Below, one piece after another: positions 10,312 to 29,463 of a stretch of 63,024 nt of DNA. The first letter of the stretch is position 1. Every line of letters starts with the position of its first letter. Position numbers and translations under genes: made by a program. The stretch covers positions 75,311-138,334 of the forward strand of contig JAFGWA010000050.1 in assembly GCA_016937715.1 (NCBI GenBank). Direction: 5' to 3'. This stretch comes from Candidatus Goldiibacteriota bacterium. Its GTDB lineage: Bacteria; Oederibacteriota; PGYV01. The notes below the pieces were generated by a model. It saw nothing but the letters and a program-made list of their open reading frames with translations, was not told the DNA's origin and did not search any database.

Positions 10312-11163
10312 ATGGAAAAACAGCTTGTTGTAATTACAGGGTGTGATTCAGGTATAGGAAAAAGCCTTTGTGAAACATATCTGAAAAATGGTTACGCAGT
10401 GGCTGCTTCTTTTCTTTATAATTCCACGATAAATTCCTCCCATGACTTTTTTCAGAAAAAAATGGATCTCAGGCTTACCGAAGATATAAAAGCTTTTTAT
10501 AATTTTGCCCTGTCAATACTGCAAAAAGGCTTCAGCCTTTCTCATTTTATCAATAACGCGGGGGTGGCCGTGTTTGGCCCGGCGGAAAACCTTCCGATTG
10601 CCGCCTACAGGGAAACATTTGACATAAATTACTTTGGTATGGTGGCCCTTGTAAAAGATTTCATCCCGCATCTTATTTCATCCCGCGGAACTATAATAGT
10701 AATAGGATCCACCGCCGGAAAAGTTGCCACCCCGTTTTCTTCCCCTTACTGCTCATCTAAATTTGCCGTTGAAGGTTTTTGCGACTCTTTGAGAAGGGAA
10801 CTTATACCTCACAGAATAAAAACAATCCTTATTGAACCGGCAGGAATTCAAACGCCTATCTGGAAAACAGGGTGGGAAAATGCCAGGCAGAAGTATTTCC
10901 GGCACTTTGACAAAAAATACCTTAAATCTTTTGAGATAATGGAAAAAAAGGTGATATTAAATCCCGCGGGAAGGCTTTCGCAGGAAAAATGCGCGGAAAA
11001 AATATACCGCATATCTTTAAAAAAACACCCGAAAGCAAGATATATGATAGCAAAAAATTATCTGACAGAGTGGCTTAAACTTCACGTACCTTCGCCGATA
11101 ATTGATTTTGCCCTGCCAAAAATACTTGGAATGGATTATGGAAAAAAGAAGCCGCAGATTTAA
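10312..11163 (+). CDS. Short-chain dehydrogenase/reductase (SDR)
   Basis: ITGCDSGIGK cofactor motif and YCSSK catalytic motif. Start moved to the ATG at 10312 behind an AGGGGG RBS. Confidence 0.85.
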   Translation: MEKQLVVITGCDSGIGKSLCETYLKNGYAVAASFLYNSTINSSHDFFQKKMDLRLTEDIKAFYNFALSILQKGFSLSHFINNAGVAVFGPAENLPIAAYRETFDINYFGMVALVKDFIPHLISSRGTIIVIGSTAGKVATPFSSPYCSSKFAVEGFCDSLRRELIPHRIKTILIEPAGIQTPIWKTGWENARQKYFRHFDKKYLKSFEIMEKKVILNPAGRLSQEKCAEKIYRISLKKHPKARYMIAKNYLTEWLKLHVPSPIIDFALPKILGMDYGKKKPQI

Positions 11164-13523
11164 TCAGCCGGAACAGTAAAATAAAAAGCGGCGCCTTCGT
11201 TTACGCGTGAACTTACCCATATTTTTCCTTTGTGCTGGGTTACTATTTTTCTGCAGACTGCAAGCCCTATTCCCGTGCCTTCATATTCATCCCGGCTGTG
11301 CAGTTTTTCAAATATTTCAAATATTTTTTCCTTATACTCTTCTTCTATTCCTATGCCGTTGTCTTTTACGCAGAACTCCCACTCATTTCCCTTTTTCTCC
11401 GCGGAAATTGTAATTTCGGGTTCTTTAACATTTCTTGTAAATTTAACCGCGTTGCCTGTAAGATTTTCCATAAGCCTTAACATCTGCGTTTTTGCCGCGC
11501 GTATAACCGGAAGATTTCCTTTGCTTATTTTTATATTAGACTCCTGTATGGCCGCGTTCATATCCATAATACAGGTCTGTACAACTTCATTCATATCCAC
11601 GTCCGTAAAAGGCTCTGCTTTGCTTTTATTGCCAACCCTTGAATATTCCAGAAGGTCTTTAATAAGCTGCCTTAACCTTAAGGCCCCGTTCATTATATTA
11701 TCCAGGTATTCTTTTCCTTCCGCGTTTATGTCCGTGCCGTACTTTTTAATAAGCAGCTCCGAATATATATATATCATACGCAGCGGTTCCTGCAGGTCAT
11801 GCGACGCCACATACGCGAATTTTTCAAGTTCTTCATTTGATTTTAAAAGCTCTTCCACTGTAATCTCAAGTTTCTTCTGCGCTTCTATTACCTGTGATAT
11901 ATCAATAATGTTTATAAGGGTTGCCGCAGAATTTTCAAACATTATATCTTTCTTATTAACCGCCACCCACGTTGCTTCACCTTTATTATCCCTTAATATC
12001 AAATTACATGTAATCTCATGACGGCACTCTTTAAACCGTTCTTCAGTAACCACTCCATTTTCATCCTGTAGTTTTGCCAGAAAACCGCCAAGCGTAAGCA
12101 TCTGCGCCTCTTTATAATCAATGGCTGAAAGGTCACAAAAACCTTTGTTCGCGAAGACCACCTTACCTTCCTTCACTATAACAATTCCCATCATCTGCTG
12201 TTCAGCAAGGCTCCTGAATTTTTCTTCAGACACCTTTACCGCTTCCAGTGCCGTAAAAATATCCGTTATATCCCTTGCTTCTATCACAATCATTTCAACC
12301 CTGCCGTCCCTTCCCATTACAGGGGAAATTGATACATCCGCTTTTATTTCCCTGCCGTCAGAAAAACGGATACTTGTTTCATATCTGAATATTTTCCCCT
12401 TAGAAGCTTCCTCTACGCCATACTTCAGCTGTTTATTGTCAGCCTCATTGATATACCGCCACGGAACATCCCAGATTTTTATACCTTTGACATTTTCAAA
12501 AGAACCGGAAAATATATCAAAAGACCTTTTATTGGCATCAATTATACTTCCATCCGCGGTCAGCAGCCCGACAAAATCAAAAGAGGATTCAAATATGGCT
12601 TTAAAACGGTTTTCGCTTAATCTCAACTCATCAAGAGTAATCTTAATTTCTTTTGTCTTTTTATCAACTTCATTCTTTAAGGACTTATTCCAGACAAAAA
12701 GCACCATGAAAACAAAGAAACTTAAAGCCACAAAAATCGACAAAAAAAGTATCAATTCCCTTCTGCTGATTATTTCCGCGCCGCGCCAGGCAACATCTGT
12801 TTTTTTATATTCTTCCGCGCTTATCGCGTTAAAACCTTTTTCAACAACAGCCAGCAGTTCCGTCCGGTTTTTATTCACAGCCCTGTGAAAGGCCCCTGTA
12901 TAAAGGTTCATACTGTACTTAAAATCATCCTCTATTTTTCTTTTATTCAGATAATATATCGCCGGCGGCTTGTCCACGCAGAAAACTTTTATCATACCCG
13001 CGGCGGCTTCGGCAATAATCTCCGCGTAATCGCTGTATTCTGTCATTTCCGTTATGCCGTTCTTTTTAAGCACCTCAATGCAGGCATCATTCGTTTTTAC
13101 GCCTATTTTAAACCCATGAAGCGACTCTATATCACGGATACCGGATATATCTTTATGAAAAAACACGGGAACCTCTATAACAGCGTACGGATGGGTAAAC
13201 AGGTACTTTTTCTGCCTTTCCGGAGTTTTAAAAATTGAATCTATAACATCCGCCTTGCCTGTATCCATTTTTTCAAACGCGCTGCTCCACTGCAGCCCTT
13301 CAATATTTACCTTTATACCCGTCTTTTTCTCCCAAAGTTTCCAGTGGTCTATTGAAATACCGACAAGTTCGCCGTTTTTTTCGCGAAAAGAATAGGGGGG
13401 ATAATTGTCATCAATTACAACATTAATTTCAGATATTGTCCCGGCAGGCATTATATAGACAGGAAAAAATAAAATTAAAACAAAAAAAATCACCAGTACG
13501 CGTGCAGTCCCTGTTTTCCCCAT
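11160..13523 (-). CDS. Sensor histidine kinase with periplasmic solute-binding (SBP type 3-like) domain, TM segment, PAS repeats, HisKA, HATPase
   Basis: ASHDLQEPLR H-box and GTGIGLAVCRKIV G2 box. The ATG at 13523 has an AGAGGG RBS; an upstream in-frame ATG at 13553 is an alternative. Confidence 0.85.
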   Translation of the reverse strand: MGKTGTARVLVIFFVLILFFPVYIMPAGTISEINVVIDDNYPPYSFREKNGELVGISIDHWKLWEKKTGIKVNIEGLQWSSAFEKMDTGKADVIDSIFKTPERQKKYLFTHPYAVIEVPVFFHKDISGIRDIESLHGFKIGVKTNDACIEVLKKNGITEMTEYSDYAEIIAEAAAGMIKVFCVDKPPAIYYLNKRKIEDDFKYSMNLYTGAFHRAVNKNRTELLAVVEKGFNAISAEEYKKTDVAWRGAEIISRRELILFLSIFVALSFFVFMVLFVWNKSLKNEVDKKTKEIKITLDELRLSENRFKAIFESSFDFVGLLTADGSIIDANKRSFDIFSGSFENVKGIKIWDVPWRYINEADNKQLKYGVEEASKGKIFRYETSIRFSDGREIKADVSISPVMGRDGRVEMIVIEARDITDIFTALEAVKVSEEKFRSLAEQQMMGIVIVKEGKVVFANKGFCDLSAIDYKEAQMLTLGGFLAKLQDENGVVTEERFKECRHEITCNLILRDNKGEATWVAVNKKDIMFENSAATLINIIDISQVIEAQKKLEITVEELLKSNEELEKFAYVASHDLQEPLRMIYIYSELLIKKYGTDINAEGKEYLDNIMNGALRLRQLIKDLLEYSRVGNKSKAEPFTDVDMNEVVQTCIMDMNAAIQESNIKISKGNLPVIRAAKTQMLRLMENLTGNAVKFTRNVKEPEITISAEKKGNEWEFCVKDNGIGIEEEYKEKIFEIFEKLHSRDEYEGTGIGLAVCRKIVTQHKGKIWVSSRVNEGAAFYFTVPAD

Positions 13524-13558
13524 TTTTACCCTCTTAGCACTCGTGTTTGTCATCTTAC

Positions 13559-13688
13559 AAAAAAGGCGGTTTGGAAAAATCCGGTGGGGTTAATTTTATT
13601 CGGGCTTCAAACCCGTCCCGCGGATTGTGTCCAAACCACCCGCCCTGTTCCTGATTTCCCGGTATTGGATCCACAATCATTATACACA
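13559..13688 (-). promoter_or_regulatory. Candidate promoter plus ~115-nt structured leader or small RNA ending in a terminator-like stem and U6
   Basis: On the minus strand: TGTGTATAAT extended -10 (13679-13688); GAUUGUG/CACAAUC helix; long-range GGCGG..GGUUUGGA / UCCAAACCGCC helix followed by UUUUUU (13559-13564). Confidence 0.4.
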
Positions 13689-13749
13689 ATAAAAGGGGGG
13701 AAAACAAATTTTCATTATAAAAAAACCGCTCTGTTTTCTAAGTGAAAAA

Positions 13750-14145
13750 TTACCGCTTAATTTTTTCCCTGATACTGACTTTCGAAAAAACAGTCTCTAT
13801 TTTTTTCAGCAGAACTGCCGCGGAGAAAGGCTTTATTATATAACTGTCCGCGCCGGCATTAAATCCATTTTCAACATCAGTTACCTGCCCTCTTGCGGTT
13901 AAAAACATAACCGGAACTTTTCGCAGGCTGCTTTTTGACCTTATAACCCTGCACGCGGTTATTCCATCCATTACAGGCATCATTATATCCAGTATAATAA
14001 GATCAGGAACATTTTTTTCAGCCGTTTCAACGGCTTTTTTCCCGTTCTCCACGGCTTTTACATCATAGTAAGGAGAAAGCGTTTCTACGATGGCACACAT
14101 TACGGAAGATTCATCTTCAGCCAGTAAAATTTTTTTCCTTTCCAT
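13750..14145 (-). CDS. Single-domain response regulator (receiver only)
   Basis: LLAEDE, DLIILDIMMPVMDG, conserved K in IIKPF. Confidence 0.9.
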   Translation of the reverse strand: MERKKILLAEDESSVMCAIVETLSPYYDVKAVENGKKAVETAEKNVPDLIILDIMMPVMDGITACRVIRSKSSLRKVPVMFLTARGQVTDVENGFNAGADSYIIKPFSAAVLLKKIETVFSKVSIREKIKR

Positions 14146-15208
14146 TTTCTGTCACCTCTTTTGTATTTTCTTTTTTAGGAAGGAATACACAAAATTCGCT
14201 TCCTTTTTCTTCTTCGCTTTTTACAGTTATCCTGCCGCCGTGCAGGTCTATTATGCGCTTTGTTATTGAAAGCCCTATGCCTGCCCCTCCCGCAGAGGAC
14301 TTAATTTTACTGTCCTGCACCCTGTAGAACTTATCAAAAATTTTCTTTAAATTTTCCGAAGATATTCCTATGCCTTCATCAGATACCGAAAAAAATGATT
14401 CCTCCGCTGATTCACCCGCCTTTATTGTAATACTTCCCCCTTCAGGCGAATATTTTACGGCATTTGAGATAAGGTTGATTAAAACCTGTGATATTTTATC
14501 CCTGTCCGCGAAAACTTTTACAGGCACCGGACAATCACATATTATTTTATGCCTGCCCGCAGACGCTGAAAATGTGTTCTTAACTTCACAAATTATGCTT
14601 ATAAGGTCATTATGCTCGCGTGATAAAGGTATTTCTTTACCTGCTTCCAGCCTTGACAGGTCAAGCACATCTCCAATAAGCGCGCCAAGCCTTTTTATCT
14701 CCCGGTTAATGATAAGTGAATACTCCCTTGCTTTTTCAATCCCGCACTTTCCCCCGCTTATCAGCTCGCTGTAAACCTGAATAGGAGTCAAAGGAGTCCT
14801 TAACTCATGTGAAACCATATTTAAAAATTCCGACTGCATTTCTTCAAGTTTCTTTTTTTCAGTGATATCCCTTAAAACAGCAACACATCCCGGACGCCCG
14901 CCCCCATTTTCCTTTATTGGAACAAGTATAACGGCATAATAAAACAAAATTCCGGATCTTTTTATCTCTATTTCAATCTTTTTTCTTTTATTACTGCGTA
15001 TCACCTTTATAAGGCTGTCTTTTAATTGTGACGGCGTAAGCGTTTCAAAAAACACTTCGGCAGTTATTCCATTTTTAGCTCCAAAAAGCTGCTGGGCGGC
15101 CCTGTTTAAAAAAACACCTTTTATTTCATCATCTACAGCAACAACAGCGTCTTCCATACTTTGAAGAATTGTTTCCGTCCATAAGAACGACTGCATTTCT
15201 TTATACAT
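14117..15208 (-). CDS. PAS-domain sensor histidine kinase (cytoplasmic)
   Basis: H-box VSHELRTPLTPI, N-box LINLISNAVKYS, G boxes DEGIGI / GAGIGLSI. Confidence 0.9.
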   Translation of the reverse strand: MYKEMQSFLWTETILQSMEDAVVAVDDEIKGVFLNRAAQQLFGAKNGITAEVFFETLTPSQLKDSLIKVIRSNKRKKIEIEIKRSGILFYYAVILVPIKENGGGRPGCVAVLRDITEKKKLEEMQSEFLNMVSHELRTPLTPIQVYSELISGGKCGIEKAREYSLIINREIKRLGALIGDVLDLSRLEAGKEIPLSREHNDLISIICEVKNTFSASAGRHKIICDCPVPVKVFADRDKISQVLINLISNAVKYSPEGGSITIKAGESAEESFFSVSDEGIGISSENLKKIFDKFYRVQDSKIKSSAGGAGIGLSITKRIIDLHGGRITVKSEEEKGSEFCVFLPKKENTKEVTENGKEKNFTG

Positions 15209-15304: not shown

Positions 15305-15338
15305 AAAAAAAGCGCCCTTGTATAAAGAGCGCTTTTTT
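15305..15338 (-). terminator. Rho-independent terminator closing the seven-gene cassette (bidirectional-looking)
   Basis: AAAAAAGCGC ... GCGCTTTTTT inverted repeat 8 nt downstream of the stop at 15346. Confidence 0.6.
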
Positions 15339-15345
15339 ATTTGCT

Positions 15346-15651
15346 TTATTCTTTTTCCGTGCCATACCCCGCAGGCCCTTTTGAAGAAATAACAACCTGT
15401 TCCGGTTCTTCTTCTTTTTCTTCTTTTGTGTTTTTCCCCCAAAAAAGATCTATTGATATTTTTTCTTTTGATTTTTTCTGTTTTACATTCAGTTCAAAAA
15501 AAACATTCTTCTCGGGGTTAAGCTCCACAACTTCCTCCCCTTTCTGAACAAAAATCTTTCCTTCCTTAAGGCTTTTCACGATGCCTTCAAGATAGCCTAC
15601 AGCGTCATTAAGTTCCATCAAACCTTCCATGCCAACCTCTTTTTTTTCCAT
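15346..15651 (-). CDS. Small amphi-Trp-like protein, paralog 1 (101 aa)
   Basis: GGAGGA RBS. Aligns with the 15665-15931 and 19566-19859 products: Y[LF][ED]..........G.I......E...L.P......E........I.I...W, then a charged tail. Confidence 0.75.
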   Translation of the reverse strand: MEKKEVGMEGLMELNDAVGYLEGIVKSLKEGKIFVQKGEEVVELNPEKNVFFELNVKQKKSKEKISIDLFWGKNTKEEKEEEPEQVVISSKGPAGYGTEKE

Positions 15652-15664
15652 ACAATCCTCCGGT

Positions 15665-15931
15665 TCAGTTTTTATCGGGGCTTATTGTCAGGTCCTGCCC
15701 GTTTTCCTGTATCTTTTCCCACGACATTTTTATTTCAATCTTTTCGCTGTGTTTTTTACTGCAGGCTTCCACTTTAATTTCAATAATCTTTGACGGTTTA
15801 AGAACCACAATTTCCTCCGAACTTCTGATATAAATTGTTCCTGTTCTCATGCTTTTCGCAAGCTCTTCAAAATATACGGCAGCCTTTTCCATATCAACAT
15901 CCCATTTTGCTTCAATTTCTTTTTTTGACAT
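15665..15931 (-). CDS. Small amphi-Trp-like protein, paralog 2 (88 aa)
   Basis: Start set to the ATG at 15931 (MSKKEIEAKW...) behind an AGGAGG RBS; the track start at 16045 would overlap the upstream kinase gene. Ends ...KIEIKMSWEK. Confidence 0.75.
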   Translation of the reverse strand: MSKKEIEAKWDVDMEKAAVYFEELAKSMRTGTIYIRSSEEIVVLKPSKIIEIKVEACSKKHSEKIEIKMSWEKIQENGQDLTISPDKN

Positions 15932-15938
15932 TAAATTT

Positions 15939-17039
15939 TCACCTCCTTTTTTCAGCGTTTGAACCTTCAATAATCTCAATAAGAATTTCGGTAGCCTCAT
16001 CAAAATCCACACCTCCTGTAATCTCATAAACCGGCATGTTTTCAAACAATTTCAAATATGCTTCTTCAGTACCGTCGTACTGCATTTCTCCGCTGTACTG
16101 AATAAAAAACAGCCCTGTATCCTTCATAAAAGCCGGTAATAGATTCCTTTTTCTGTACAAATCAACTTTTTCACATTTAACCTTCTGTTCCGCTCCCCTT
16201 TTCCAGTTTAAAATCACAAGTGATTTCATCGGCGCTTCAAGTACAAACCTGTTTTTTCCAAAAACTTCATCAATCTTAACGTCATATTTATGTTCCAGCT
16301 CCCACAGTTCATCAACAGGTATTCTGAAATATTCCTCCCTTTCCTCCTCGGGAATAACATTTATCAGGGCGGAATTCCCAAGTACAGTCCCCGGATTAAC
16401 CCTTGGCAGCTTAGGTATCCCTTTCATAACAATCCCGCCTTTTTCCTTAACTGCAATTACCCTGTCATTGCTTATGAATTTCATGCCCCGCCTCATCATA
16501 TTAAGCGCCATTGTGGATTTTCCGGCGCCTGAAAATCCGCTTATACACATGCCGTTATTCTGATAACATATTCCTGACGCATGCATTAAAAGGCCGCCTT
16601 TTTTTAAAAGCCATTCTATATACCTGTTGTTTATAAAATTTACAATCTGATTATCATTTAACGCGCACGGCCCGACGGCAGTGCTGACATTTTTACCGGT
16701 AAGAAATACCATCCCGGTAATTATCTTTTTTATTATCCTTCCTCCCGCGATATCCGCGTACTCTTCCTTTATTTTTTTCTTGCCGGGTTCAGGCTGCTTT
16801 TTTATGAATTTAAGGTCAAAATCAGGGGCTTCACCGTCAACGGCTTTAACAACAATATCCGCGTTCAGCGCTTCATCCGTGAATTCACCGTAATAATCAG
16901 AAAGTTTTTTTAACAGATTTTCAGAATTTGATTCAACCCTGATAACACAACCGCCAAAATTAAGCGTAACAGCGCCTTTTATCCTTACCGATCTGTTTAT
17001 TGTCTCATTAAACTGTTCAACACTTATGCTTTCTATCAC
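15939..17039 (-). CDS. HprK-related P-loop kinase (HprK-related kinase B type as I recall the family name)
   Basis: HASGICYQNNGMCISGFSGAGKSTMALNMMRRGMKFISND parallels the HPr kinase core H..G....G.G.L..G.SG.GKS..AL.L..RGH..V.DD. Confidence 0.7.
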   Translation of the reverse strand: MIESISVEQFNETINRSVRIKGAVTLNFGGCVIRVESNSENLLKKLSDYYGEFTDEALNADIVVKAVDGEAPDFDLKFIKKQPEPGKKKIKEEYADIAGGRIIKKIITGMVFLTGKNVSTAVGPCALNDNQIVNFINNRYIEWLLKKGGLLMHASGICYQNNGMCISGFSGAGKSTMALNMMRRGMKFISNDRVIAVKEKGGIVMKGIPKLPRVNPGTVLGNSALINVIPEEEREEYFRIPVDELWELEHKYDVKIDEVFGKNRFVLEAPMKSLVILNWKRGAEQKVKCEKVDLYRKRNLLPAFMKDTGLFFIQYSGEMQYDGTEEAYLKLFENMPVYEITGGVDFDEATEILIEIIEGSNAEKRR

Positions 17040-17917
17040 CTCATTGCCTCCTTTAATACATAATCAGCGTATATTCCGGCGGCATCAATACCGCACGCGT
17101 CTAAAAGCCCCCTGAAACCGCCAAAAGCCGATACTTCAAAGACAAAAATCCCTTCTTTAGCTTCAACAACATCAACACATGTAAAATCAAGTTTAAAAAT
17201 ATCACGCGCTTTTCTTGCCAGATTTATTATTTCATCCGAAGGATTATACTTAACATACTTTCCGCCGCTGTTAATTGTAGTGTTCCACGCGCCTTCATTT
17301 TTCATCCTTGCATAAGTACCTATATATTCATCGCCTATAAACGTTATGCCAAGGTCCTTATCAGCGATGTTGATTATTTTTTGAATGTATATTATGGGAT
17401 TCCCGGCTTTTATAAAATCACTTACGCATTCATCAACATTATCAGTTTCGGCATCAATAACTTTCATGCCCCTTGCCTTGGTTGAGAATAACGGCTTCAA
17501 TACAGCCTTTCCAAAATCTCTTACCGCCTCTGACGCAAGCACGGCATCAGCGGTTACAAAAGTCGGAGGCATTGGAATCAAACCCTCCCTTAAAGACGCC
17601 GTACAGCTTAAGCGGCCTATCATCTGTTTCATTGTATCCGGATCTGAAAAAACTTTTACCCCGCGCCTCTTCAGCATTCCCGCCATTTCCAGCCTGTCAA
17701 TACAGGCAGGGGAATACTCACTGTCTATTTTTTTTATAATTACAGCATCAAGTTCAGACAGGTCTTCACCCTTATAAAAAAGCGTGTTTTTTTCAAAATC
17801 AGCTGTAACTTGCGCCATATCAATCAGAATCACAGAACCTGTTTTAGCTTTAATGCTTTGACACATTTTTTCGGTTGACCATCCGCCCGGAATTCCAATT
17901 ACACCTGTTTTTTTCAC
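17036..17917 (-). CDS. RimK-like ATP-grasp ligase (GAK-system ATP-grasp type)
   Basis: ATP-grasp landmarks: AVLKPLFSTKARGM, DLGITFIGDEYIG, NSGGK, CVDVVEAKEGIFVFEVSAFGGF. GTG start; 4-nt overlap with downstream gene. Confidence 0.75.
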   Translation of the reverse strand: MKKTGVIGIPGGWSTEKMCQSIKAKTGSVILIDMAQVTADFEKNTLFYKGEDLSELDAVIIKKIDSEYSPACIDRLEMAGMLKRRGVKVFSDPDTMKQMIGRLSCTASLREGLIPMPPTFVTADAVLASEAVRDFGKAVLKPLFSTKARGMKVIDAETDNVDECVSDFIKAGNPIIYIQKIINIADKDLGITFIGDEYIGTYARMKNEGAWNTTINSGGKYVKYNPSDEIINLARKARDIFKLDFTCVDVVEAKEGIFVFEVSAFGGFRGLLDACGIDAAGIYADYVLKEAMR

Positions 17918-17919
17918 TT

Positions 17920-19569
17920 TTAATTACCCCAGTATTCAAGAATTCCGGAAGGCAGCCTGAAACTTTCCGGTTTTTGCGAATATTCAGCCGCTTTTTTAAG
18001 AAGATAAAACGCTTTCATATACATTGCCTTTGAAAAATCTTTGTCAAGCTGAAACCGTGTTGAAGTCATAAACGACCTTGCAAGCGCCATCGCCATTCTT
18101 AATTCAAAAGTCTTATCCTGATTTTTTGAAGCAAAATCAGACACGAACATAAAAAATTCATTTATTACAAAATCAATCTTCATCCGTATGTCGCGGTCAA
18201 AAAACGGCATCCTGTAATTTGAGACGATAAAAACAGAAGCATCCTGAACGTAATCTCCGGCGCCTGAACGGTGAAGGTCTATGTAGCTTATTTTTTTTCT
18301 GTCTGTGTCATAAATTATGTTATCAGCGTTGCAGTCCCCGTGCAGCATAACGCAAAAAGGCGCAAACAGTACATTTTCCGCTTCCATGGCTTTTTTTAGA
18401 ACTTCTTCATGTGACATTGTTTCCATCCTGCCTATTACGCTTTTTCCTTTTTTAAATTCCGGATGAACAGCATAAACATCTTCCAGCCTGTCCATCAGCT
18501 GTTTAATAAAACATCCTTTTACGGGCCGGGTTTCTTTTGTGGACTGCCATATACCGCCCATTTTTTCTGTCATCGCATTTAAAGACTCTTTAACAGCAGG
18601 CATCTGCCCGTTTATTATTATGTCTTTAATCGTGGAACCTTTGATATATTCCAGAACAATGGACGCATTCCTGCCATTCTTATTAAAATTAAGCACCGCA
18701 GGCGCAATTCCCGGCATTATTTTCTGCCACTTTTCAATACTCTCTTTTTCTTTCTCTATTTTCAAAGCAATACCTTCTTTAAAAATAACCCCTTTGGTGT
18801 TTCCGCCGTTTTTTTCAAATACTTTTCTTATGGTATTGCCGGATTTTGTTTCGCCTACAGATTCCATCATCATATTTTCATCTTCACTATTGTGCCGAAG
18901 CGCTTCAAACTGATGAATTTTTATCCGTTCCCCGAATACAACGGAAATAACAGCCTCTCCTATATTTAAAATACAATCCCCGACACGTTCCAGATGCTGA
19001 AAAATAAAAAGCGCGGTTATGCTGTTTTCCGCGGACCCGCCTGATTTTAATCCGGTAATAATATCGTTTAGCGTGCTGGCATAAAGCACGTCAATTTCAG
19101 ACTCCGCTTTACATATTTTCATCGCAAGATTAACATCTTTTTTTTTCAGAGCCTTCACTATTAAATTGATTGCCGGTATAATCACTTCAAAATAATCACT
19201 ATGATTAAAGTTCTTCATGAACTGCTTGTCTATAAGGTATTTTACCTGCCTGGAAATGTTTACGGCGTGGTCAGCAATATGTTCAAGGTTAGCACTTATG
19301 ACAACGGCAGCCCTTACATAATCTATCTCGTTTCTGGAAATCTCCTTATTTTCTTCAAGATACGTGCCGCTTTTGCTTTCAATCGCGTTCTTCATATTAT
19401 CAATACAGTCATCTTTAGCCTGGATACGTTCCGATAATTTAAGGCATTCTTCCGGCGAATCAAGGACACGGCACGCGTCCTGCAGCTGTTTTACCACTTC
19501 AATTGACAAAAACTGAAGTGTTTCTTCAAACCCTTTTAAATCTTCATGCGCTTTTTTCACGGTTCTCAT
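17920..19569 (-). CDS. Fusion protein: N-terminal double PhoU-like repeat + C-terminal APH/choline-kinase-type phosphotransferase domain
   Basis: PhoU-type motifs LEHIADHAVNISRQ and LERVGDCILNIGEAV. Kinase catalytic loop HGDCNADNIIYD and metal loop YIDLHRSGAGDYVQD. Confidence 0.7.
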   Translation of the reverse strand: MRTVKKAHEDLKGFEETLQFLSIEVVKQLQDACRVLDSPEECLKLSERIQAKDDCIDNMKNAIESKSGTYLEENKEISRNEIDYVRAAVVISANLEHIADHAVNISRQVKYLIDKQFMKNFNHSDYFEVIIPAINLIVKALKKKDVNLAMKICKAESEIDVLYASTLNDIITGLKSGGSAENSITALFIFQHLERVGDCILNIGEAVISVVFGERIKIHQFEALRHNSEDENMMMESVGETKSGNTIRKVFEKNGGNTKGVIFKEGIALKIEKEKESIEKWQKIMPGIAPAVLNFNKNGRNASIVLEYIKGSTIKDIIINGQMPAVKESLNAMTEKMGGIWQSTKETRPVKGCFIKQLMDRLEDVYAVHPEFKKGKSVIGRMETMSHEEVLKKAMEAENVLFAPFCVMLHGDCNADNIIYDTDRKKISYIDLHRSGAGDYVQDASVFIVSNYRMPFFDRDIRMKIDFVINEFFMFVSDFASKNQDKTFELRMAMALARSFMTSTRFQLDKDFSKAMYMKAFYLLKKAAEYSQKPESFRLPSGILEYWGN

Positions 19570-19859
19570 TTTCTTGCTTCTTCTCTGCTTTCAATGACAA
19601 GCGTATCTGTTTTAAAATTCCCGGGATTTTCGCCGTTTTTCCACCAGCACTTTAACGACAGTTTTATACTTCTGCCTTTTCTTCTGGCCCGTACCTCTAA
19701 ATTTAACAGCTCTGCCGGTTCCAGTATTATTTTTTTATCGCCGCTGCCCAGTATAATTTTGCCCTGCATAAAACCATCTTTTAACGCGTCAAGGTATTTA
19801 ATCAGCGATTCTTTATCCTGAAGCGATTCATATTCAAACTCGTCTTTCACCGTGCTCAT
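19566..19859 (-). CDS. Small amphi-Trp-like protein, paralog 3 (97 aa)
   Basis: GGAGG RBS; ...SIKLSLKCWWKNG... aligns with paralogs 1 and 2; ATGA overlap with downstream gene. Confidence 0.75.
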   Translation of the reverse strand: MSTVKDEFEYESLQDKESLIKYLDALKDGFMQGKIILGSGDKKIILEPAELLNLEVRARRKGRSIKLSLKCWWKNGENPGNFKTDTLVIESREEARK

Positions 19860-19872
19860 TTAACACCTCCGC

Positions 19873-21036
19873 TTAAAGCCTGTTTTTATACTCTTTAATT
19901 GTTTTCTCTTTTGAAAAACCGCATTTTTTCAGCGCATTTTGTATTTCCGGTTCTTTCCATGCCGGCTGAAACCCTATCTCCCTTTTTGATTTTTCCGCTT
20001 CCTGAAGCTCCTTGGGGCGTACTTTTTCCCCAAGATGCGTGTCATCTCCCATAAATACCAGTTTTCTTCTTTTTGATTTATTATTAGCGGTTACATTAAT
20101 AAGAAATTCCGTGAATTCTCTTGACTGCGGATTCCACACTTCAAAACCGTCAATATCATAATCAGCCAGCAGTATAGGCCAGAATTGCTCCGGGTGAGGG
20201 ACAACTATTCCCGCCCCCGCCACCCTTGCTTCTTCAATCACTTCATGCGTGTTAAAAAAGTAATCATGGCTGAATCCTTTTTTCACTTCTTCCTTCACGG
20301 CTTTAAGAAACAACTGGCACATGTCTATAACTCTCGCGTCATATACATTCCGAAGCTCATCAAAAAAATTCCTGATAAGTTTGTTTTTAATAATACCCGG
20401 CAGTATAAATTTTTCATTCTGCCTGAAAAGGGCCGCAAACTTTTTCGCGTATATTACCGTAAATTCAACAAGTTCCGCCGGTACCCCTGTTGCTTCAGCG
20501 GCAGTTTTTTTAATCTTTTTTTCTGCGGGCGACATTCCGTTTAACGCGTTTAAAAACTCATACATCTGGCTTGAACGGTATAAAAAGGTGTGTGATATCA
20601 TTGATACAAGTTTCGCCGCCTTTTCAGATTTAAAACCCTTAAAATGCAGAAGCAGCTGGACTTTCCTGTTGAATTCCGGAGAAAAACAGTCAACTTCAAC
20701 CCCGGAAAAACCCTCAAGTTCAAGTATTTCGTTATGCTGCGTCGGAATAATAAGGCTGTCTGCCGCATTCGGAAAAGACGCTTTTACCCTTCTTAAAGCA
20801 AGGTCAACAGGTACAAATTCCGGATGCCAGTGAACGGCAAGCACAGCAGTTTCTTTAGTGTCAACTAATTCCGGTAAAATCAGTTCTTTTTCTTTTTCAG
20901 GGCTGATTCCGCAAAATATAACTTTTCTTAAATATTCCGCGTCCTTATCCGTAACTTCCCGCGGAATATCGCTGATTTCACGGATAGCGCCGCCGCTTTC
21001 GCGCCGGCTGATTCCTTTAACTTTAATTTTATTCAT
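19873..21036 (-). CDS. Hypothetical protein, possibly a divergent PHP-like metal phosphoesterase (387 aa)
   Basis: GAGGAG RBS. Candidate metal ligands in PHP-like order: HWHPE, PTQHNE, VVPHPE...DGFEVWN, GDDTHLG. Weak assignment. Confidence 0.4.
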   Translation of the reverse strand: MNKIKVKGISRRESGGAIREISDIPREVTDKDAEYLRKVIFCGISPEKEKELILPELVDTKETAVLAVHWHPEFVPVDLALRRVKASFPNAADSLIIPTQHNEILELEGFSGVEVDCFSPEFNRKVQLLLHFKGFKSEKAAKLVSMISHTFLYRSSQMYEFLNALNGMSPAEKKIKKTAAEATGVPAELVEFTVIYAKKFAALFRQNEKFILPGIIKNKLIRNFFDELRNVYDARVIDMCQLFLKAVKEEVKKGFSHDYFFNTHEVIEEARVAGAGIVVPHPEQFWPILLADYDIDGFEVWNPQSREFTEFLINVTANNKSKRRKLVFMGDDTHLGEKVRPKELQEAEKSKREIGFQPAWKEPEIQNALKKCGFSKEKTIKEYKNRL

Positions 21037-21125
21037 CTATTCTCCTCAATTGTCTTTATCAGAGAGATTATGCCCTGTGTTTGTGAAAATCCATTAAAGT
21101 ATTTATTAACTTTCTATAAAGCGCC

Positions 21126-21153
21126 CTTAACAAAATAATAACCCTGTCTTAAT
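21126..21153 (+). promoter_or_regulatory. Three direct repeats CTTAAC / AATAAC / CTTAAT at exact 11-bp spacing (candidate OmpR/PhoB-family box)
   Basis: Repeats begin at 21126, 21137 and 21148. TAATAT, a -10-like hexamer, lies 13 nt downstream. The region sits in the divergent promoter between 21036 and 21207. Confidence 0.35.
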
Positions 21154-21206
21154 CGTAAATACCCTCTAATATTGTTTAATTAGTCAGGTACACAAAGGAG
21201 AACATT

Positions 21207-23615
21207 ATGAAAAAAGCAGACCTGCACGTGCATTCAAGTTTTTCAGACAGGCCTTCGGAATGGTTTCTTCAGAAACTTGGCACGGCGGAATCATACACCG
21301 CCCCTGAATTTATTTATAAAAAGTGCATGGAAGCCGGTATGGATTTTGTCACGGTAACCGATCATAACTGCATAAAGGCATCAATGATACTTAAGAAACT
21401 GCACCCGGAAAATGTTATTCCCGGGGTTGAATCCACGGTTTATTTTCCTGAAGACGGCTGTAAAATTCACCTTTTAATTTACAATCCCACGGAAAACCAG
21501 TTCGGTGAGATTGAAAACAAAAGGGAAAACATATATAAACTGCGTGATTACCTGCTCTCTGAAAATCTGGCGCATTCCGTGGCTCACGCGACTTATTCGG
21601 TAAATAACATCCTTACTCTGGAGCACCTGGAAAAGCTTATACTTTTATTTGATGTCTTTGAAGCAAGAAACGGCGCAAGAGATTCGCACAGTAATTCCGT
21701 GTGGACAGAGGTTCTTTCATCGCTTACAGAAGAACACCTGCAGCGCCTTGAAAACAAATACCGTATCAGGCCGGCAAGCCGTAACCCCTGGATTAAGGGA
21801 ATGACCGGAGGCAGCGATGACCACGCGGGTATTTTTATCGGCAAAACCCACACAATTTTTCAGGCAGACAGCCCGCAGGAAGTTATAGACGCGTTACGAG
21901 ATAAGCAATGCAGCGCGGGCGGCAGGCATAATAATTACTTATCTTTTGTCTTTGCGATTTATAAAATCGCATATGATTTTTCAAAGACAAAAAGCTCCGG
22001 TTCCGGCGGCAGCCTTTTCAAAAGCCTGAGCGAATTTATATTCGAAAAAGACAAACTTTCATTAAAGGACAAAATGAAAGTTAACCATATTAAAAACAAC
22101 GCGAAAAAAAACGAAAACAAAGTAAATCTTCTTTTGACCAATCTGGTTGAAGAACTTGGAATGGAAAAAAATACCCCCGCGGAAAAACGTTTTGAGCTGG
22201 TTCATTCCAACGTTTCAAAAATAGCGGATACCTTTTTGACCGGCTTTTTTTCATCCCTGCAGACCGACTTTAAAAACGGGGATATAACAGCCCTTATAAA
22301 AAACATTTCAGCTTTAATCCCGGCGGGATTCCTCTCAGTTCCCTTTTTCACTTCACTGCACCACTTCAACACAAACAGGGGCCTTATTAACAGCCTGAAA
22401 TCAAAATACTGCCCCAATATGCTTTCTAAAGGAAAAAGAATCCTTTGGTTTACAGACACCTATAAAGATTTAAACGGCGTATCGGTAACTTTAAATAACC
22501 TTATGTCTCACGCGCGGCAGATGAAACGTGATATCAGCGTGGTTTCCTGCGCGGAAGAATCCCCCCTTAAACTGGATTCTATTTACAGTTTCTCCGTACC
22601 TTATTATGAAGCGTGCTCTTTGAAAATTCCGTCTATGCTTATGTCGCTTAAAAAAATATATGAATATAATCCTGATGAAATCTATATTTCAACTCCGGGC
22701 CCGGTAGGGCTTCTTGGGCTTCTGGCCGCAAAAGTACTGAACATAAAAGCCACTTCCATTTATCATACGGATTTTTCGCTTCAGGCGGCTAAAATCACTT
22801 CGGATTCCGCCATTGAAACGCTTGTTGATTCATCTTTAAAATGGTTCTATTCACTCTCTGACAGCGTTCAGGTTCCGTCCCGGGAATATATAAAAACACT
22901 TAAAAACCGCGGCTATGACACTTCAAAAATGTCCGTTTTCAGGCGCGGCCTTGACACCTCTTTAATAAAACCCGTTGAAGATGCAAGGGTAAAACTAAAG
23001 GAACAGTTTGGTATTCCGGAAAACGGCCGTGTTCTTCTTTATACCGGCAGAATATCCCGCGATAAAAATCTTGATTTTTTATCAGATGTATACCGGTCAT
23101 TGCTTCCTGAATTTCATGATCTTAAACTTCTGATTGCGGGTGACGGTCCATATTTGGACAATCTTCGCGCGAATACCGCCGGTTTAAAAGGAATATATTT
23201 TTTAGGCAGGCAGCCTCAGGAAAACATGCCCTTAATCTACTCTTCCGCGGATCTTTTTATGTTCCCCAGCGTCACGGACACTTTTGGAATGTCAGTGCTT
23301 GAAGCGCAGGCATGCGGAATTCCCGCAATAGTTTCCGACAAAGGCGGGCCGCAGGAAATCATCATAGATAAAGAAACTGGTTATGTCCTGCCGGTTTGTA
23401 AGGATCAGTGGGTTACAGCTGTCAGGGACTTTTTCAAAAACAGCAGTGAATTTCCCGCAGTGCACGAAATTATGAAATTTAAAGCAAGAAGAAACGTGCT
23501 TGAAAATTATTCCTGGGAAAAAATAATAAAATTAATAACCGGAACCGCGGCTGAAGATCAGGATGAAACTTCCGCATACAGCGAACAGGATGTGTTTACA
23601 GGGGTTCTTTGCTGA
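21207..23615 (+). CDS. Fusion protein: N-terminal PHP phosphoesterase domain + central unknown region + C-terminal GT4 (group 1) glycosyltransferase
   Basis: PHP: ADLHVHSSFSDRPSEW, DFVTVTDHN, GVESTVYF. GT4: GRISRDKNLDFL, GDGPY, FPSVTDTFGMSVLEAQACGIPAIVSDKGGPQEII. AAGGAG RBS. Confidence 0.75.
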   Translation: MKKADLHVHSSFSDRPSEWFLQKLGTAESYTAPEFIYKKCMEAGMDFVTVTDHNCIKASMILKKLHPENVIPGVESTVYFPEDGCKIHLLIYNPTENQFGEIENKRENIYKLRDYLLSENLAHSVAHATYSVNNILTLEHLEKLILLFDVFEARNGARDSHSNSVWTEVLSSLTEEHLQRLENKYRIRPASRNPWIKGMTGGSDDHAGIFIGKTHTIFQADSPQEVIDALRDKQCSAGGRHNNYLSFVFAIYKIAYDFSKTKSSGSGGSLFKSLSEFIFEKDKLSLKDKMKVNHIKNNAKKNENKVNLLLTNLVEELGMEKNTPAEKRFELVHSNVSKIADTFLTGFFSSLQTDFKNGDITALIKNISALIPAGFLSVPFFTSLHHFNTNRGLINSLKSKYCPNMLSKGKRILWFTDTYKDLNGVSVTLNNLMSHARQMKRDISVVSCAEESPLKLDSIYSFSVPYYEACSLKIPSMLMSLKKIYEYNPDEIYISTPGPVGLLGLLAAKVLNIKATSIYHTDFSLQAAKITSDSAIETLVDSSLKWFYSLSDSVQVPSREYIKTLKNRGYDTSKMSVFRRGLDTSLIKPVEDARVKLKEQFGIPENGRVLLYTGRISRDKNLDFLSDVYRSLLPEFHDLKLLIAGDGPYLDNLRANTAGLKGIYFLGRQPQENMPLIYSSADLFMFPSVTDTFGMSVLEAQACGIPAIVSDKGGPQEIIIDKETGYVLPVCKDQWVTAVRDFFKNSSEFPAVHEIMKFKARRNVLENYSWEKIIKLITGTAAEDQDETSAYSEQDVFTGVLC

Positions 23616-24219
23616 CGCTCTGCGAAGCCAATTCAGAGACCAATAACTCCATTTCTTCGCCGAATTTGTTAATTTCATTTAACAACCTTGAATTATCAAC
23701 TGCCGTAGCCGCAAATCCCGCCAGGTCAACGCACAAATCAACATCAATCTGGCTGAAAGGCTCAAGATTCCTGGTATTGTAGACTTCAAAAAAACCAAAA
23801 AATTCATCCTGTTTTCCAAGAATTGGAACTGATATAAAATTTCTGATTTTAAAAACTTTTTGAACTTCTGCCGGCATATACTGGTTTCTGTCGGTATTAT
23901 TGCAAAGGTAGGGTTTTTTGGTTTCCATAACCATCCCGGATATCCCCTTGCCCCTTTGAAACTTATATTCAAGAGGAAGCACCCTTCCATTCACACCATA
24001 TTTATTAAAGACCACTTTGGTTCTGTTGAACAGCGCGGCCGCCCCGGTCTGCGCGCCTGAAAGTTTTATGGAGCTTTCTATAAGCGCGTCCATTATATCG
24101 TCTATATCCAATAAACTATTAAGGTTTTTACCAAGATTTATAAGCATATGAAGCCTGTCCTGATACTCATAAGCGGAAGCAAGCATTTGCCTGTACCCGT
24201 TTACATTATTAATCTCCAT
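23596..24219 (-). CDS. Stand-alone GAF-domain protein
   Basis: GAF-like pattern (LLDIDDIMDALIESSIKLSGAQTGAAALF...SVPIL...FFGFFEVYN); 11-nt overlap with the cheA stop. Confidence 0.6.
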   Translation of the reverse strand: MEINNVNGYRQMLASAYEYQDRLHMLINLGKNLNSLLDIDDIMDALIESSIKLSGAQTGAAALFNRTKVVFNKYGVNGRVLPLEYKFQRGKGISGMVMETKKPYLCNNTDRNQYMPAEVQKVFKIRNFISVPILGKQDEFFGFFEVYNTRNLEPFSQIDVDLCVDLAGFAATAVDNSRLLNEINKFGEEMELLVSELASQSVSKEPL

Positions 24220-25780
24220 TGTTCACCTCTCTTATTATTTTGACACAATCCGTTATAAGCACCGGCACGCCCTTTTTATCAAAGGCAGCGCCTGAATAAT
24301 ATGTTTTTTTTAAATCTATGCACTCTACCGCCGCTGTCATACAGCTTTCAGTGACAGGAATCAAATCACATTCCAGCGCGGCTTTTAACCCTTCAAACAT
24401 AAGAACACAAAATATCCTGCTGTTTATATTTGACCGCCTGATGCCGCCAAATATACGCGCGGTTTCTACACATTTTATTTTTTCACATCCGGAATATATA
24501 AAATCAGAATTTTTTTCTCTGACAATGTTATTTTCAAACACGCACATCACAGAGGAAACATAAGCTTCCGGAAGAAGGAAAACCCTTCCATTTATAACAA
24601 TTTTTACACCATCAATCACATTAATACTGGCCGGAAGCCTGATTATAAAAGTTGAGCCCTCTCCTTTTTTTGTCTTTAGTGTTAAATTCCCCCTTAAATC
24701 TTCAACATACTGCCTTACAACATCCAGGCCAACACCTCTTCCGGAAACCGAATCAATTCCTGAGGCAGTGGAAAATCCGGGGTGTGTTATTATCTTTAAA
24801 ATCCCCGTATCATCAATAATGCTGCCCGCTTCTGCCGCTCCTGTTTTAACGGCTTTATCCATTATATCTTCGGCAGATATCCCCTTTCCGTCATCCCGGA
24901 CTGAAACAAAAAAATTTCCCTCATCAGAATATGTATTTAAAGTTATTCTTCCTTCTGGGTTTTTCCCTTTTATCACCCTTTCTTCAGGTGTTTCTATTCC
25001 ATGCCCTATCGCATTCCTTATAATATGCGCAAGGGGCTCGCTTATCCTTTCCGCAACACTTCTGTCAGCTTCATCAGCACCAAGATTATAAACAAAAGAA
25101 ACCGTCTTGCCGGAAGCACGGCACGCTGTTAAAGCGGCATTTTCCATCTTTTTCATTACAGGAGTAAGGCTTACCATATTAATACCGCCGGCGGCTGTAA
25201 AAAGCTGCGGTAAAATATGAGACAGTTTTTCAATCTCTTTTAACATGAATATTATATCTTCGTTTTTCCTGTCTTTTACTTTTTCCGCCGCAAACTTGAC
25301 TGTTTTTACACAAGCCGTTAATTTTAACACCACAGCCATTAAGGCCCTTGCTTTTTCAGGCTTTATTTTCAGATACCCTTCATTTTGCCCGTTATTGGTA
25401 TTAAAATTGGTTTTTCCGTCCGGGGACGCTCCTGAAAAATTTTTCTCACCTGAAACCGAAGCCGTTTCTTTTATCATCGCGCAAAACGCGTATAATACCC
25501 CTATAAAACCGCGGGTGTTTTTAACAGCGCCTTTTCTGAGTAAATCCAGCATATTTTCAGCGTTATGCGCTGTTTTTCCAAGCACATCAAGTTCAAGCGC
25601 GAAAGCATCCCCTTTAATTGTATGAAAAATTCTGAATAATTCCCTTGTTGAATCCTGCCCTCCGTCACGTTCAAATACAGCAAGAAGTTTTTCCGCCCTG
25701 TCAATATTTTCCGCAGTTTCAAGGTAAAAATCATCTATGATGTCTTTATCTTTCTCCTGCACAAACTTTTTTTCTGTCAT
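24209..25780 (-). CDS. cheA: Chemotaxis histidine kinase CheA (short form: Hpt, HATPase, CheW-like domains)
   Basis: Hpt phosphosite FHTIKGDA; HIIRNAIGHGIE N-box; GRGVGLDVV G-box. Confidence 0.85.
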   Translation of the reverse strand: MTEKKFVQEKDKDIIDDFYLETAENIDRAEKLLAVFERDGGQDSTRELFRIFHTIKGDAFALELDVLGKTAHNAENMLDLLRKGAVKNTRGFIGVLYAFCAMIKETASVSGEKNFSGASPDGKTNFNTNNGQNEGYLKIKPEKARALMAVVLKLTACVKTVKFAAEKVKDRKNEDIIFMLKEIEKLSHILPQLFTAAGGINMVSLTPVMKKMENAALTACRASGKTVSFVYNLGADEADRSVAERISEPLAHIIRNAIGHGIETPEERVIKGKNPEGRITLNTYSDEGNFFVSVRDDGKGISAEDIMDKAVKTGAAEAGSIIDDTGILKIITHPGFSTASGIDSVSGRGVGLDVVRQYVEDLRGNLTLKTKKGEGSTFIIRLPASINVIDGVKIVINGRVFLLPEAYVSSVMCVFENNIVREKNSDFIYSGCEKIKCVETARIFGGIRRSNINSRIFCVLMFEGLKAALECDLIPVTESCMTAAVECIDLKKTYYSGAAFDKKGVPVLITDCVKIIREVNNGD

Positions 25781-25934
25781 AAAACCCCGCTGCTGTTTAT
25801 TAAACTTTTTAATTTATTTATAATGGATCAACCGTGTTAACATTTCATTTTCTTACAGTTATTAATACATTTTTTGTATATAACATAAATAAAACACCCT
25901 CTTAACAGGTAATTAACGCCGCAAAGGCATATTT

Positions 25935-26357: not shown

Positions 26358-26382
26358 CACACAAAACGGAGGAATTAACCAG

Positions 26383-29409: not shown

Positions 29410-29463
29410 ATTTCCTCCCATATCGGTTTATAAACAGCAATATGACGGATGCCTGTATCTGTT

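Follow-up and report, generated by a model that had tools for sequence, protein, structure and literature searches.

Which task could be served by an operon that combines two kinases, an ATP-grasp ligase, a putative phosphoesterase and three small proteins? The question is raised by seven genes (g1 to g7) on a 63,024-nucleotide (nt) stretch of DNA from a Candidatus Goldiibacteriota bacterium (contig JAFGWA010000050.1), the whole of which was analysed and is called the window below. The operon is near-certainly a representative of the GAK system, which carries the names of its ATP-grasp, amphi-Trp and HprK-related kinase families and is already known as a computational definition based on co-occurrence. 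New are a corrected core composition, two classes of amphi-Trp proteins, a PHP-like fold for the protein of the first gene, a lineage-specific partner gene and evidence pointing to the Pho regulon. The revised core, together with Pho-box-like repeats and neighbouring transporter genes, turns the co-occurrence into a concrete and testable hypothesis, in which the enzymes may modify the small proteins in response to phosphate.

The operon and the core of the GAK system

The operon lies on the minus strand and begins with g1 (19873-21036, 387 residues), the product of which is a putative metal-dependent phosphoesterase, PHP-like and interrupted by a long insertion of helices; its family is called U below. 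The next genes are g2 (19566-19859, 97 residues), a type-A amphi-Trp protein, g3 (17920-19569, 549 residues), which joins an N-terminal two-repeat PhoU domain to a kinase of the APH/EcKL type, g4 (17036-17917, 293 residues), a GAK-system ATP-grasp ligase of the RimK/LysX/MptN family, and g5 (15939-17039, 366 residues), a P-loop kinase of the HprK-related kinase B (HprK-B) family. Two type-B amphi-Trp genes, g6 (15665-15931, 88 residues counted from the ATG located 10 nt downstream of an AGGAGG) and g7 (15346-15651, 101 residues), end the operon. The junctions from g1 to g7 measure +13, -4, +2, -4, +7 and +13 nt, reproducing the tight packing with gaps of at most 13 nt or overlaps that had been described in an earlier note, written by a model from the sequence alone. 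The same note had proposed a single operon with one promoter region and one terminator. An intrinsic terminator (15306-15338, minus strand) with a 14-bp stem including 5 G-C pairs and then a T-run (TTTTTTATTTTT) follows g7, and the only sizeable non-coding stretch upstream of the operon is the 170-nt region 21037-21206, a divergent promoter region common to the operon and the gene of a PHP-GT4 fusion protein. Inside the operon, matches to sigma-70-like promoters and terminators occurred at the level expected by chance. The assignment of g1 to g7 to one operon is sound, and its GC content resembles that of the surrounding window.

The GAK set in NCBIfam/TIGRFAMs includes TIGR04354 (amphi-Trp), TIGR04355 (HprK-related kinase B), TIGR04356 (ATP-grasp), TIGR04357 (CofD-like) and TIGR04358 (XXXCH). 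With the NCBIfam profiles, g4 scored 410.1 bits against TIGR04356 (curated cut-off 300) and g5 462.3 bits against TIGR04355 (curated cut-off 200), while g2, g6 and g7 scored 63.5, 49.7 and 50.8 bits, respectively, against TIGR04354 (cut-off 31). All three name-giving families are thus adjacent and above their curated cut-offs, and they stand in the order found in more than 100 other loci. The earlier note, which had called the locus GAK-type, had named the lack of profile matches or of conserved neighbours in other genomes as what would speak against this; profile matches and, when neighbourhoods were tabulated, a gene order kept across several phyla were both found. Also its description of the three small proteins as paralogs was borne out, with 34% identity between g6 and g7 (E 5e-14) and 25% between g2 and g7 (E 2e-7). 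With a verified TIGR04357 protein as query, phmmer found no CofD-like homolog anywhere in the 63-kb window, and no XXXCH (TIGR04358) homolog was found either, as had been noticed before.

When each GTDB species, represented by one genome, was scanned with the HprK-B profile, GAK was detected in at least 455 species, mostly Desulfobacterota. The other carriers belong to Spirochaetia, Nitrospinota, SAR324, Planctomycetales, Ignavibacteriales, Acidobacteriota, FCPU426 and GN15. The composition of the loci was counted from 55 HprK-B-anchored genome loci with enough flanking sequence. The PhoU-kinase was present in 54 of these, and an amphi-Trp gene directly upstream of it likewise in 54, followed by the ATP-grasp gene (52 of 55), the U family of g1 (49), the CofD-like gene (40), the XXXCH gene (30, mostly in Desulfobacterota) and a downstream amphi-Trp gene (27). 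A PHP-GT4 protein of about 800 residues (T) was encoded within 10 kb in 11 of the 55 loci. In the reciprocal test, 32 metagenome loci were anchored on U, and amphi-Trp was found in 30, the PhoU-kinase in 29, ATP-grasp in 28, HprK-B in 27 and T in six of them. Representatives of the CofD-like and XXXCH proteins in the loci proved to belong to TIGR04357 and TIGR04358, respectively.

The conserved order is [XXXCH] - U - amphi-TrpA - PhoU-kinase - ATP-grasp - HprK-B - [CofD] - [amphi-TrpB...], and its recurrence in over 100 loci of several phyla is far beyond chance. The core of GAK consists of five genes (U, amphi-TrpA, PhoU-kinase, ATP-grasp and HprK-B) instead of three, and the type-B amphi-Trp proteins, here g6 and g7, are a frequent addition. 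U and the PhoU-kinase have no NCBIfam model and fall outside the published GAK family set. As they are also present in loci with CofD or XXXCH, they are core members and not substitutes, and the view of the earlier note that they stand here in place of the two missing proteins has to be given up. Its idea of a variant architecture holds for the lack of CofD and XXXCH in the lineage, not for the PhoU-kinase and the PHP-like protein, which are not what is variant. The CofD-like gene, absent in 15 of the 55 loci, is accessory.

In a neighbour-joining tree of the concatenated PhoU-kinase, ATP-grasp and HprK-B sequences, the window clustered with L015 (a metagenome-assembled genome, MAG, of Spirochaetia) and L023 (a FCPU426 MAG) in a deep lineage. 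The closest relative found was locus L164, with about 58-60% identity. All four share the same arrangement, with T divergent from U, type-A amphi-Trp, PhoU-kinase, ATP-grasp, HprK-B and two type-B amphi-Trp genes, and lack CofD and XXXCH; both are likewise missing from the Nitrospinota and Planctomycetes loci. The locus is therefore a lineage variant of GAK, which differs from the general scheme by the absence of CofD and XXXCH, by the two type-B amphi-Trp genes after the kinase gene and by the divergent PHP-GT4 gene.

Rare exceptions to the five-gene core indicate some modularity. In a Solidesulfovibrio-like clade the locus consists of amphi-TrpA, PhoU-kinase, ATP-grasp and HprK-B alone, and in three metagenome loci U was present without the kinases and the ligase, either alone (L144 and L145) or with a type-B amphi-Trp gene (L151). 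These three loci have hybrid histidine kinases on their flanks and pstCAB genes adjoining, which suggests that U can form a phosphate-linked module of its own, with amphi-Trp as an optional member.

A probable link to phosphate and magnesium

The window includes a complete phosphate cluster (28705-38248) on the same strand as the operon and 7.7 kb upstream of g1, with the order phoB-phoR-porin-pstS-(GGDEF/CBS)-pstCAB-phoU. Its genes, all on the minus strand, encode a phoB-like regulator (37571-38248), a phoR-like kinase (35811-37574), a phosphate porin O/P (34011-35027), pstS (33119-33961), a CBS-GGDEF diguanylate cyclase between pstS and pstC (32075-32935), pstC, pstA and pstB (29464-31990) and phoU (28705-29421). 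Through the CBS-GGDEF gene, cyclic di-GMP signalling may be linked to phosphate status; in L164 a CBS-GGDEF gene instead adjoins the PHP-GT4 gene.

Among 59 loci with at least 15 kb of sequence, pstC/A was a neighbour in nine, MgtA in five and MgtE in four (MgtA or MgtE in nine), and at least one of these was present in 15; overall, genes for pst/phoU or Mg2+ transport were no further than 10 kb away in about a quarter of the loci. In several Desulfobacterales loci pstCAB-phoU, GAK and mgtE follow each other on one strand. The gene of MgtA, a P-type ATPase, directly follows HprK-B in seven loci (L014, L020, L024, L039, L048, L055 and L061), and that of MgtE is found immediately downstream of GAK in five (L001, L011, L012, L017 and L049). 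The placement of Mg2+ transporter genes downstream of GAK points to a connection with both phosphate and Mg2+.

Besides this neighbourhood and the PhoU domain carried by all g3 orthologs, a third link to phosphate comes from the promoters. PhoP boxes of Bacillus subtilis are TT(A/T/C)ACA repeats with spacers of about 5 bp. The whole window was scanned in an unbiased manner for three TTAACA hexamers at 11-bp spacing (maximum score 18). Five sites, which precede pstC, the porin-pstS genes and cheW, scored at least 15 of 18 while 0.23 were expected; another with score 14 was detected just upstream of phoB. Boxes of the PhoB/PhoP type are arranged in this way. The TTAACA repeats of the phosphate cluster are located at 38276-38303 upstream of phoB, at 35170-35219 upstream of the porin gene and at 32040-32089 upstream of pstC. 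The 170-nt region between g1 and T includes four of the 30 sites of the window with a score of at least 13, and in composition-matched simulations the probability of a site this good in the region was P = 0.013. The Pho-box-like repeats facing T (21127-21154, plus strand; TTAACA-N5-TAATAA-N5-CTTAAT) have a score of 14/18, and those facing g1 (21082-21109, minus strand) consist of TTAATA-N5-TTTAAT-N5-TTCACA, followed by CATAAT 9 nt further on.

Also the related loci have such sites. The equivalent regions between g1 and T scored 16 in L015 and 15 in L023, values matched by none of 1,000 composition-matched simulations. The other top sites of L015 precede a phoB-like regulator gene and pstC, and essentially the only other sites of L023 within 21 kb precede pstC. 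Just upstream of U, L037 has essentially its sole site within 21 kb, and L051 has a site in the same position. When the upstream regions of 122 loci were analyzed, 35 reached P <= 0.05 (about six expected) and 18 reached P <= 0.01 (about one expected). Loci in which the first gene directly follows pst-phoU had low motif scores, as would be expected if they are co-transcribed with pst. Judged from these motifs, GAK operons, and in this lineage T as well, are probably members of the Pho regulon, and the Pho link of GAK as such is considered likely.

Beyond T the window continues with a chemotaxis-like cluster (23596-28702), which includes a GAF protein (23596-24219, minus strand), a CheA-like Hpt-HATPase protein (24209-25780, minus), CheW (25935-26357, plus), a Cache-domain methyl-accepting chemotaxis protein (26383-28317, plus) and a CheY-like receiver (28310-28702, plus). 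Its divergent promoter (25837-25929) has some of the best Pho-box-like repeats of the window, and this suggests that the cluster could be under phosphate-regulated taxis or signalling. The adjacency of the CheA and GAF genes to the PHP-GT4 gene is kept in L164.

The encoded proteins

For g1, no profile match was found in Pfam or NCBIfam, the Pfam PHP models included, and its family profile found none among PDB sequences. Its homologs form more than 1500 clusters at about 50% identity, all annotated as hypothetical. The AlphaFold2 model, built on a 57-sequence alignment, reached a predicted local distance difference test score (pLDDT) of 92.5 and a predicted template modelling score of 0.88, and shows seven beta-strands and a helical insert of about 130 residues (141-272). 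The invariant residues H69/H71, H101, E114, H131, H281, E299, D331 and H334 are placed in strands or at strand ends, and His, Asp and Glu at strand ends are the pattern of PHP metal ligands. The only significant Foldseek matches in the PDB were 3o0f and 3e0f, both of BAD_1165, a PHP-family "putative metal-dependent phosphoesterase" (E 4-5e-5, probability 1.0, with a template modelling score (TM) of only 0.37-0.50). As modelled, the protein may resemble PHP phosphoesterases of the cog0613/TrpH-like type in a seven-stranded barrel with such residues at the strand ends, but differs from them in the missing sequence-profile match, the low TM value and the long insertion. Comparison of the g1 family with the PHP domain of T by hhalign yielded 5% probability and only a short motif-level alignment. 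Because the fold matches and profiles do not, g1 is termed PHP-like at the level of the predicted fold and not a demonstrated member of the PHP family, and to that extent the earlier description of it as PHP-like is upheld. CorA-like Foldseek matches to the helical insert were weak and not significant, and a relationship to CorA was set aside.

The remaining enzymes agreed with their earlier naming as a PhoU-kinase fusion, a RimK-like ligase and an HprK-like kinase. In g3, Pfam recognized PhoU with 80 bits in two stretches, EcKL with 29 bits (cut-off 22) and APH with 23.9 bits (cut-off 23.2), and the PhoU half has the PDB homologs 1t72 and 2i0m. The PhoU domain, which is universal among the g3 orthologs, is a full two-repeat domain with both E-x-x-x-D metal-binding motifs (E96/D100 and E194/D198, at least 95% conserved among 75 orthologs). 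In the kinase half, the catalytic loop H410-G-D412-C-N414-A-D-N417 and the metal-binding Asp downstream of it, D431, are invariant at the motif positions (HGDxNxxN) in the same 75 orthologs, at a level of at least 95%. The score of g3 against the PhoU equivalog TIGR02135 was 79.6 bits, below the cut-off of 130, so it is not PhoU itself. The likeness to the PhoU/PhoR-PhoB/PstSCAB system also extends to the position of the locus, near pst-phoU and behind Pho-box-like repeats; however, canonical PhoU proteins stand alone with about 230 residues, as does the one of the window (28705-29421), while the PhoU domain of g3 is fused to an APH-type kinase. A characterised example of such a fusion was not found.

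After the GAK model, the next-best NCBIfam models for g4 were MptN (142 bits) and the RimK family (102 bits), and its nearest PDB relatives were RimK (5zct and 4iwx) and LysX (1uc8). It belongs to the same alpha-L-glutamate-ligase family as RimK, LysX, MptN and CofF and is encoded with small acidic-tailed proteins, but it falls below every cut-off of the RimK, LysX, MptN and CofF equivalogs.

The family profile of g5 aligned with the HPr kinase/phosphorylases (HprK/P) 2qmh and 1jb1 over the His, P-loop and DDRV segment, and H153, G168...G173-K174-S175 and N191-D192-R193 are invariant. The protein shares the same His, P-loop and Asp-Arg segment with the enzyme that acts on HPr and Crh in the carbon catabolite control of Firmicutes, and it is encoded beside small proteins that are candidate substrates. 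Only about 50 residues align, though, with no relationship in the first 140 residues or in the C-terminal region, the amphi-Trp proteins are not HPr-like, and no genes for HPr or the phosphotransferase system are present at the GAK locus. The start of g5 overlaps g4 by 4 nt, and the median gap between the ATP-grasp and HprK-B genes across loci is -4 nt. From their intact catalytic motifs, both g3 and g5 appear to be active kinases, and the invariant PHP-like residues of g1 suggest that it may be active, too.

The amphi-Trp proteins fall into two classes. Type A, represented by g2, is always encoded between U and the PhoU-kinase gene, with a median gap of 5 nt to the latter across loci and a 4-nt overlap here. 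F8 and W73 are invariant in type A, S12 is conserved in 92% and Q14 and D15 in 94%, and the first of these residues up to D15 form the near-invariant N-terminal motif F-x-[HY]-E-S-x-Q-D. The codon of Ser12, a candidate modification site, is at 19824-19826 on the minus strand. In the model of g2, built from an 11-sequence alignment, a single helix comes after the motif and leads to a basic sheet of four strands with the Trp at its end; an acidic linker and a short strand, L-x-I-x-S, complete the fold. A strongly basic K/R-rich hairpin lies beside the acidic linker; the motif region and the linker are of low confidence and unstructured. Type B, represented by g6 and g7, has an N-terminal M-x-K-K-E, the Trp, an acidic linker and then a conserved [LF]-K-I-S-x-x-P; in g6 an L-x-I-S strand comes after the linker. 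Type-B copies in Desulfovibrionaceae often have long Lys/Ala/Pro-rich tails resembling histone H1, and downstream amphi-Trp proteins with such tails were found in ten loci (L010, L013, L016, L026, L027, L034, L052, L053, L068 and L069); the copies of the window are without them.

Structural relatives of g2 were found neither with the family profile among PDB sequences, where nothing was significant, nor with Foldseek, where the model gave no match below E 0.8. An amphi-Trp profile search of 1.84 billion representatives found 1857 clusters. Among the best 150 of these, no Rosetta-stone fusions to enzymes were present, all being stand-alone proteins of 68-152 residues.

The divergently transcribed T (21207-23615, plus strand, 802 residues) has an N-terminal PHP domain and a GT4 glycosyltransferase domain, and matched Glycos_transf_1 (121.7 bits), Glyco_transf_4 and PHP_C in Pfam. 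Its invariant PHP motifs are D5-x-H7-x-H9, D52-H53-N54, E75, H88, H127 and D204-D205-H206. The best NCBIfam similarities were to lipid-linked sugar transferases, all below the cut-off. As its gene adjoins U divergently in the window and in the three related loci, T is a probable co-regulated accessory partner in this lineage. By analogy with PlcP plus Agt, it might be guessed to be a phosphate-sparing enzyme of glycolipid or glycoconjugate synthesis.

A proposed modification circuit and the alternatives to it

Taken together, the enzymes, their small partners and the promoters are here read as a Pho-regulated circuit of phosphorylation and glutamylation acting on the small proteins. The chance that this picture is right overall is put at a little under even, and the protein-substrate chemistry in it, judged separately, is doubtful. 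In such a circuit, low inorganic phosphate (Pi) would lead a PhoB/PhoP-type regulator to induce the operon and the divergent PHP-GT4 gene. The kinases g3 and g5 would phosphorylate amphi-Trp proteins, the leading candidate phosphosite being Ser12 of g2 in its form of the motif, FxHESxQD. The PhoU domain of g3 would couple kinase activity to the phosphate or metal state, and the HprK-like g5 might be reversible as a Pi-dependent phosphorylase in the manner of HprK/P. The ligase g4 would add glutamate-type residues to a carboxylate of the amphi-Trp proteins, for example in the acidic linker, and g1 would strip phosphate. The modification state of these abundant small proteins would then report or buffer the phosphate/Mg2+ status of the cytoplasm. 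The writer/eraser set that the earlier note had imagined would draw indirect support from the tight gene junctions of type-A amphi-Trp with the PhoU-kinase and of ATP-grasp with HprK-B, from the near-invariant Ser in an N-terminal motif left unstructured by the model, and from the joint loss of this Ser and of U in one clade.

The known chemistry of related enzymes has room for such steps. To our knowledge, the targets of all characterised HprK-family kinases are Ser residues of small proteins or peptides. The protein phosphatases CpsB and YwqE are PHP enzymes, and HprK/P consumes Pi in its reverse reaction, a property that would be fitting in a circuit for sensing phosphate. If the circuit is real, a protein-modification layer would be added to phosphate sensing in anaerobes relevant to sulfur and carbon cycling, and two large families, that of g1 and amphi-Trp, would receive a function. 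A wider claim, that GAK is an unrecognised branch of phosphate/Mg2+ homeostasis, controlled by the Pho regulon, in which both kinases write the Pi state on amphi-Trp proteins (on Ser12 in type A), the ligase adds glutamates, the PHP-like enzyme erases the phosphate and T is co-induced in this lineage, possibly to save phosphorus by remodelling glycoconjugates of the membrane or envelope, is rated as improbable.

Several observations count against the circuit. The repeats facing g1 are a modest match (13/18), and their identity as a Pho box is read from their position. The model of g2 reached no more than moderate quality (pLDDT 62). Ser12 was present together with U in 105 loci, and Gly replaced it in six loci without U, all of one clade; the covariation being confined to one clade, it amounts to one evolutionary event and is suggestive only. 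The C-termini of amphi-Trp proteins are variable in both types, while in S6 and LysW a conserved Glu at the C-terminus serves for recognition, and ligation at the C-terminus in the manner of RimK/S6 or LysX/LysW is therefore unlikely; a role as a C-terminal carrier of the LysW/S6 type was disfavoured for the same reason. APH/EcKL-type kinases and the ligase relatives MptN and CofF usually act on small molecules, and the CofD-like (YvcK-like) protein so often encoded alongside is a hint at a chemistry of nucleotide sugars or phosphodiesters. In Dissulfuribacter, an amphi-Trp protein ranks among the 20 most abundant proteins (PMC13490349), and such abundance fits a structural or buffering role better than pure signalling. 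Finally, no functional study of GAK, amphi-Trp or HprK-related kinase was found in the open literature searched. The literature on ScmC, a Pfam name given to some orthologs, offered no lead, and a 2024 PNAS lipidome paper included no relevant gene data. The genes Dde_3773-3780 of Desulfovibrio alaskensis G20, which show phosphate-related fitness effects, were considered as a GAK locus and rejected, since Dde_3777 encodes CobT and none of the genes there bears an HPr or RimK annotation.

The main alternative is a small-molecule pathway, in which the kinases, the ligase, the CofD-like transferase or GT4 enzyme and the PHP phosphatase would build or recycle a phosphorylated and glutamylated metabolite and the amphi-Trp proteins would be only scaffolds, carriers or regulators. 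Such a metabolite might resemble a cofactor tail, serve as a compatible solute or help to spare phosphorus. In favour of it, besides the unconserved C-termini, the closest non-GAK models of g4, MptN, CofF or LysX, are ligases of small molecules or carriers, the kinase domain of g3 fits the small-molecule kinase families APH and EcKL, the CofD-like protein of 40 of the 55 loci is closest to the UDP-sugar-binding YvcK, and the GT4 enzyme is a recurrent neighbour. However, GAK can do without the CofD-like and GT4 genes, both of which are missing from many loci, and dehydrogenases, aminotransferases, nucleotidyltransferases or other metabolic enzymes are not conserved nearby. No partners are more constant than the small proteins, which are also closely coupled to the kinase gene, and the characterised HprK-family enzymes mentioned above act on proteins or peptides. 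A pathway of this kind is held to be unlikely.

A lower rank, as quite unlikely, is given to a structural or buffering role, in which the amphi-Trp proteins would bind polyanions or cations in large numbers, for example on polyphosphate granules, on the nucleoid or as buffers of Mg2+/Pi, and the enzymes would tune their charge; their task would be storage or homeostasis in phosphate/Mg2+ stress and not signalling. Besides the Dissulfuribacter protein, which may or may not be linked to GAK, this would agree with the basic hairpin beside the acidic linker, with the histone-H1-like tails on many Desulfovibrionaceae type-B copies and with the MgtA/MgtE and pst genes adjoining a subset of loci. The copies of the window have no basic tails, though, and no genes for polyphosphate kinase or phosphatase are conserved in the loci. 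The idea also overlaps with the circuit more than it excludes it, as the enzymes would still modify the small proteins.

An anti-phage defence or conflict system with the kinases and the ligase as effectors, for which the multi-enzyme make-up without assigned function, a weak Pfam GT4-conflict match of T and a restriction-modification island elsewhere in the window could be cited, is very improbable, since PADLOC gave for eight proteins only two marginal matches over short stretches (E ~1e-3 and ~1e-2, taken as chance), within clades the locus shows synteny and vertical conservation, lying amid housekeeping genes of phosphate and Mg2+ transport instead of variable islands, its GC content is like that of its surroundings and its promoter is Pho-box-like.

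Some further features of the window were recorded. Downstream of the operon terminator, the minus-strand genes of 11160-15208 encode a PAS histidine kinase (14117-15208), a receiver-only response regulator (13750-14145) and an SBP_bac_3-PAS histidine kinase (11160-13553). Genes for histidine kinases, which are common anyway, were also found on the flanks of GAK loci in about 22 other genomes. The restriction-modification island, beside a gene for a Fic-domain protein (54713-55795), forms with it a low-GC stretch on the minus strand (54713-59548; GC 0.315-0.322 compared with about 0.40) and includes a C5 cytosine methylase (58388-59548), an NgoFVII-like endonuclease (57264-58397) and a GIY-YIG nuclease (56457-57203). 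The only Rfam match of the window at the gathering threshold is a bacterial class A RNase P RNA at 51606-51988 on the minus strand (229 bits).

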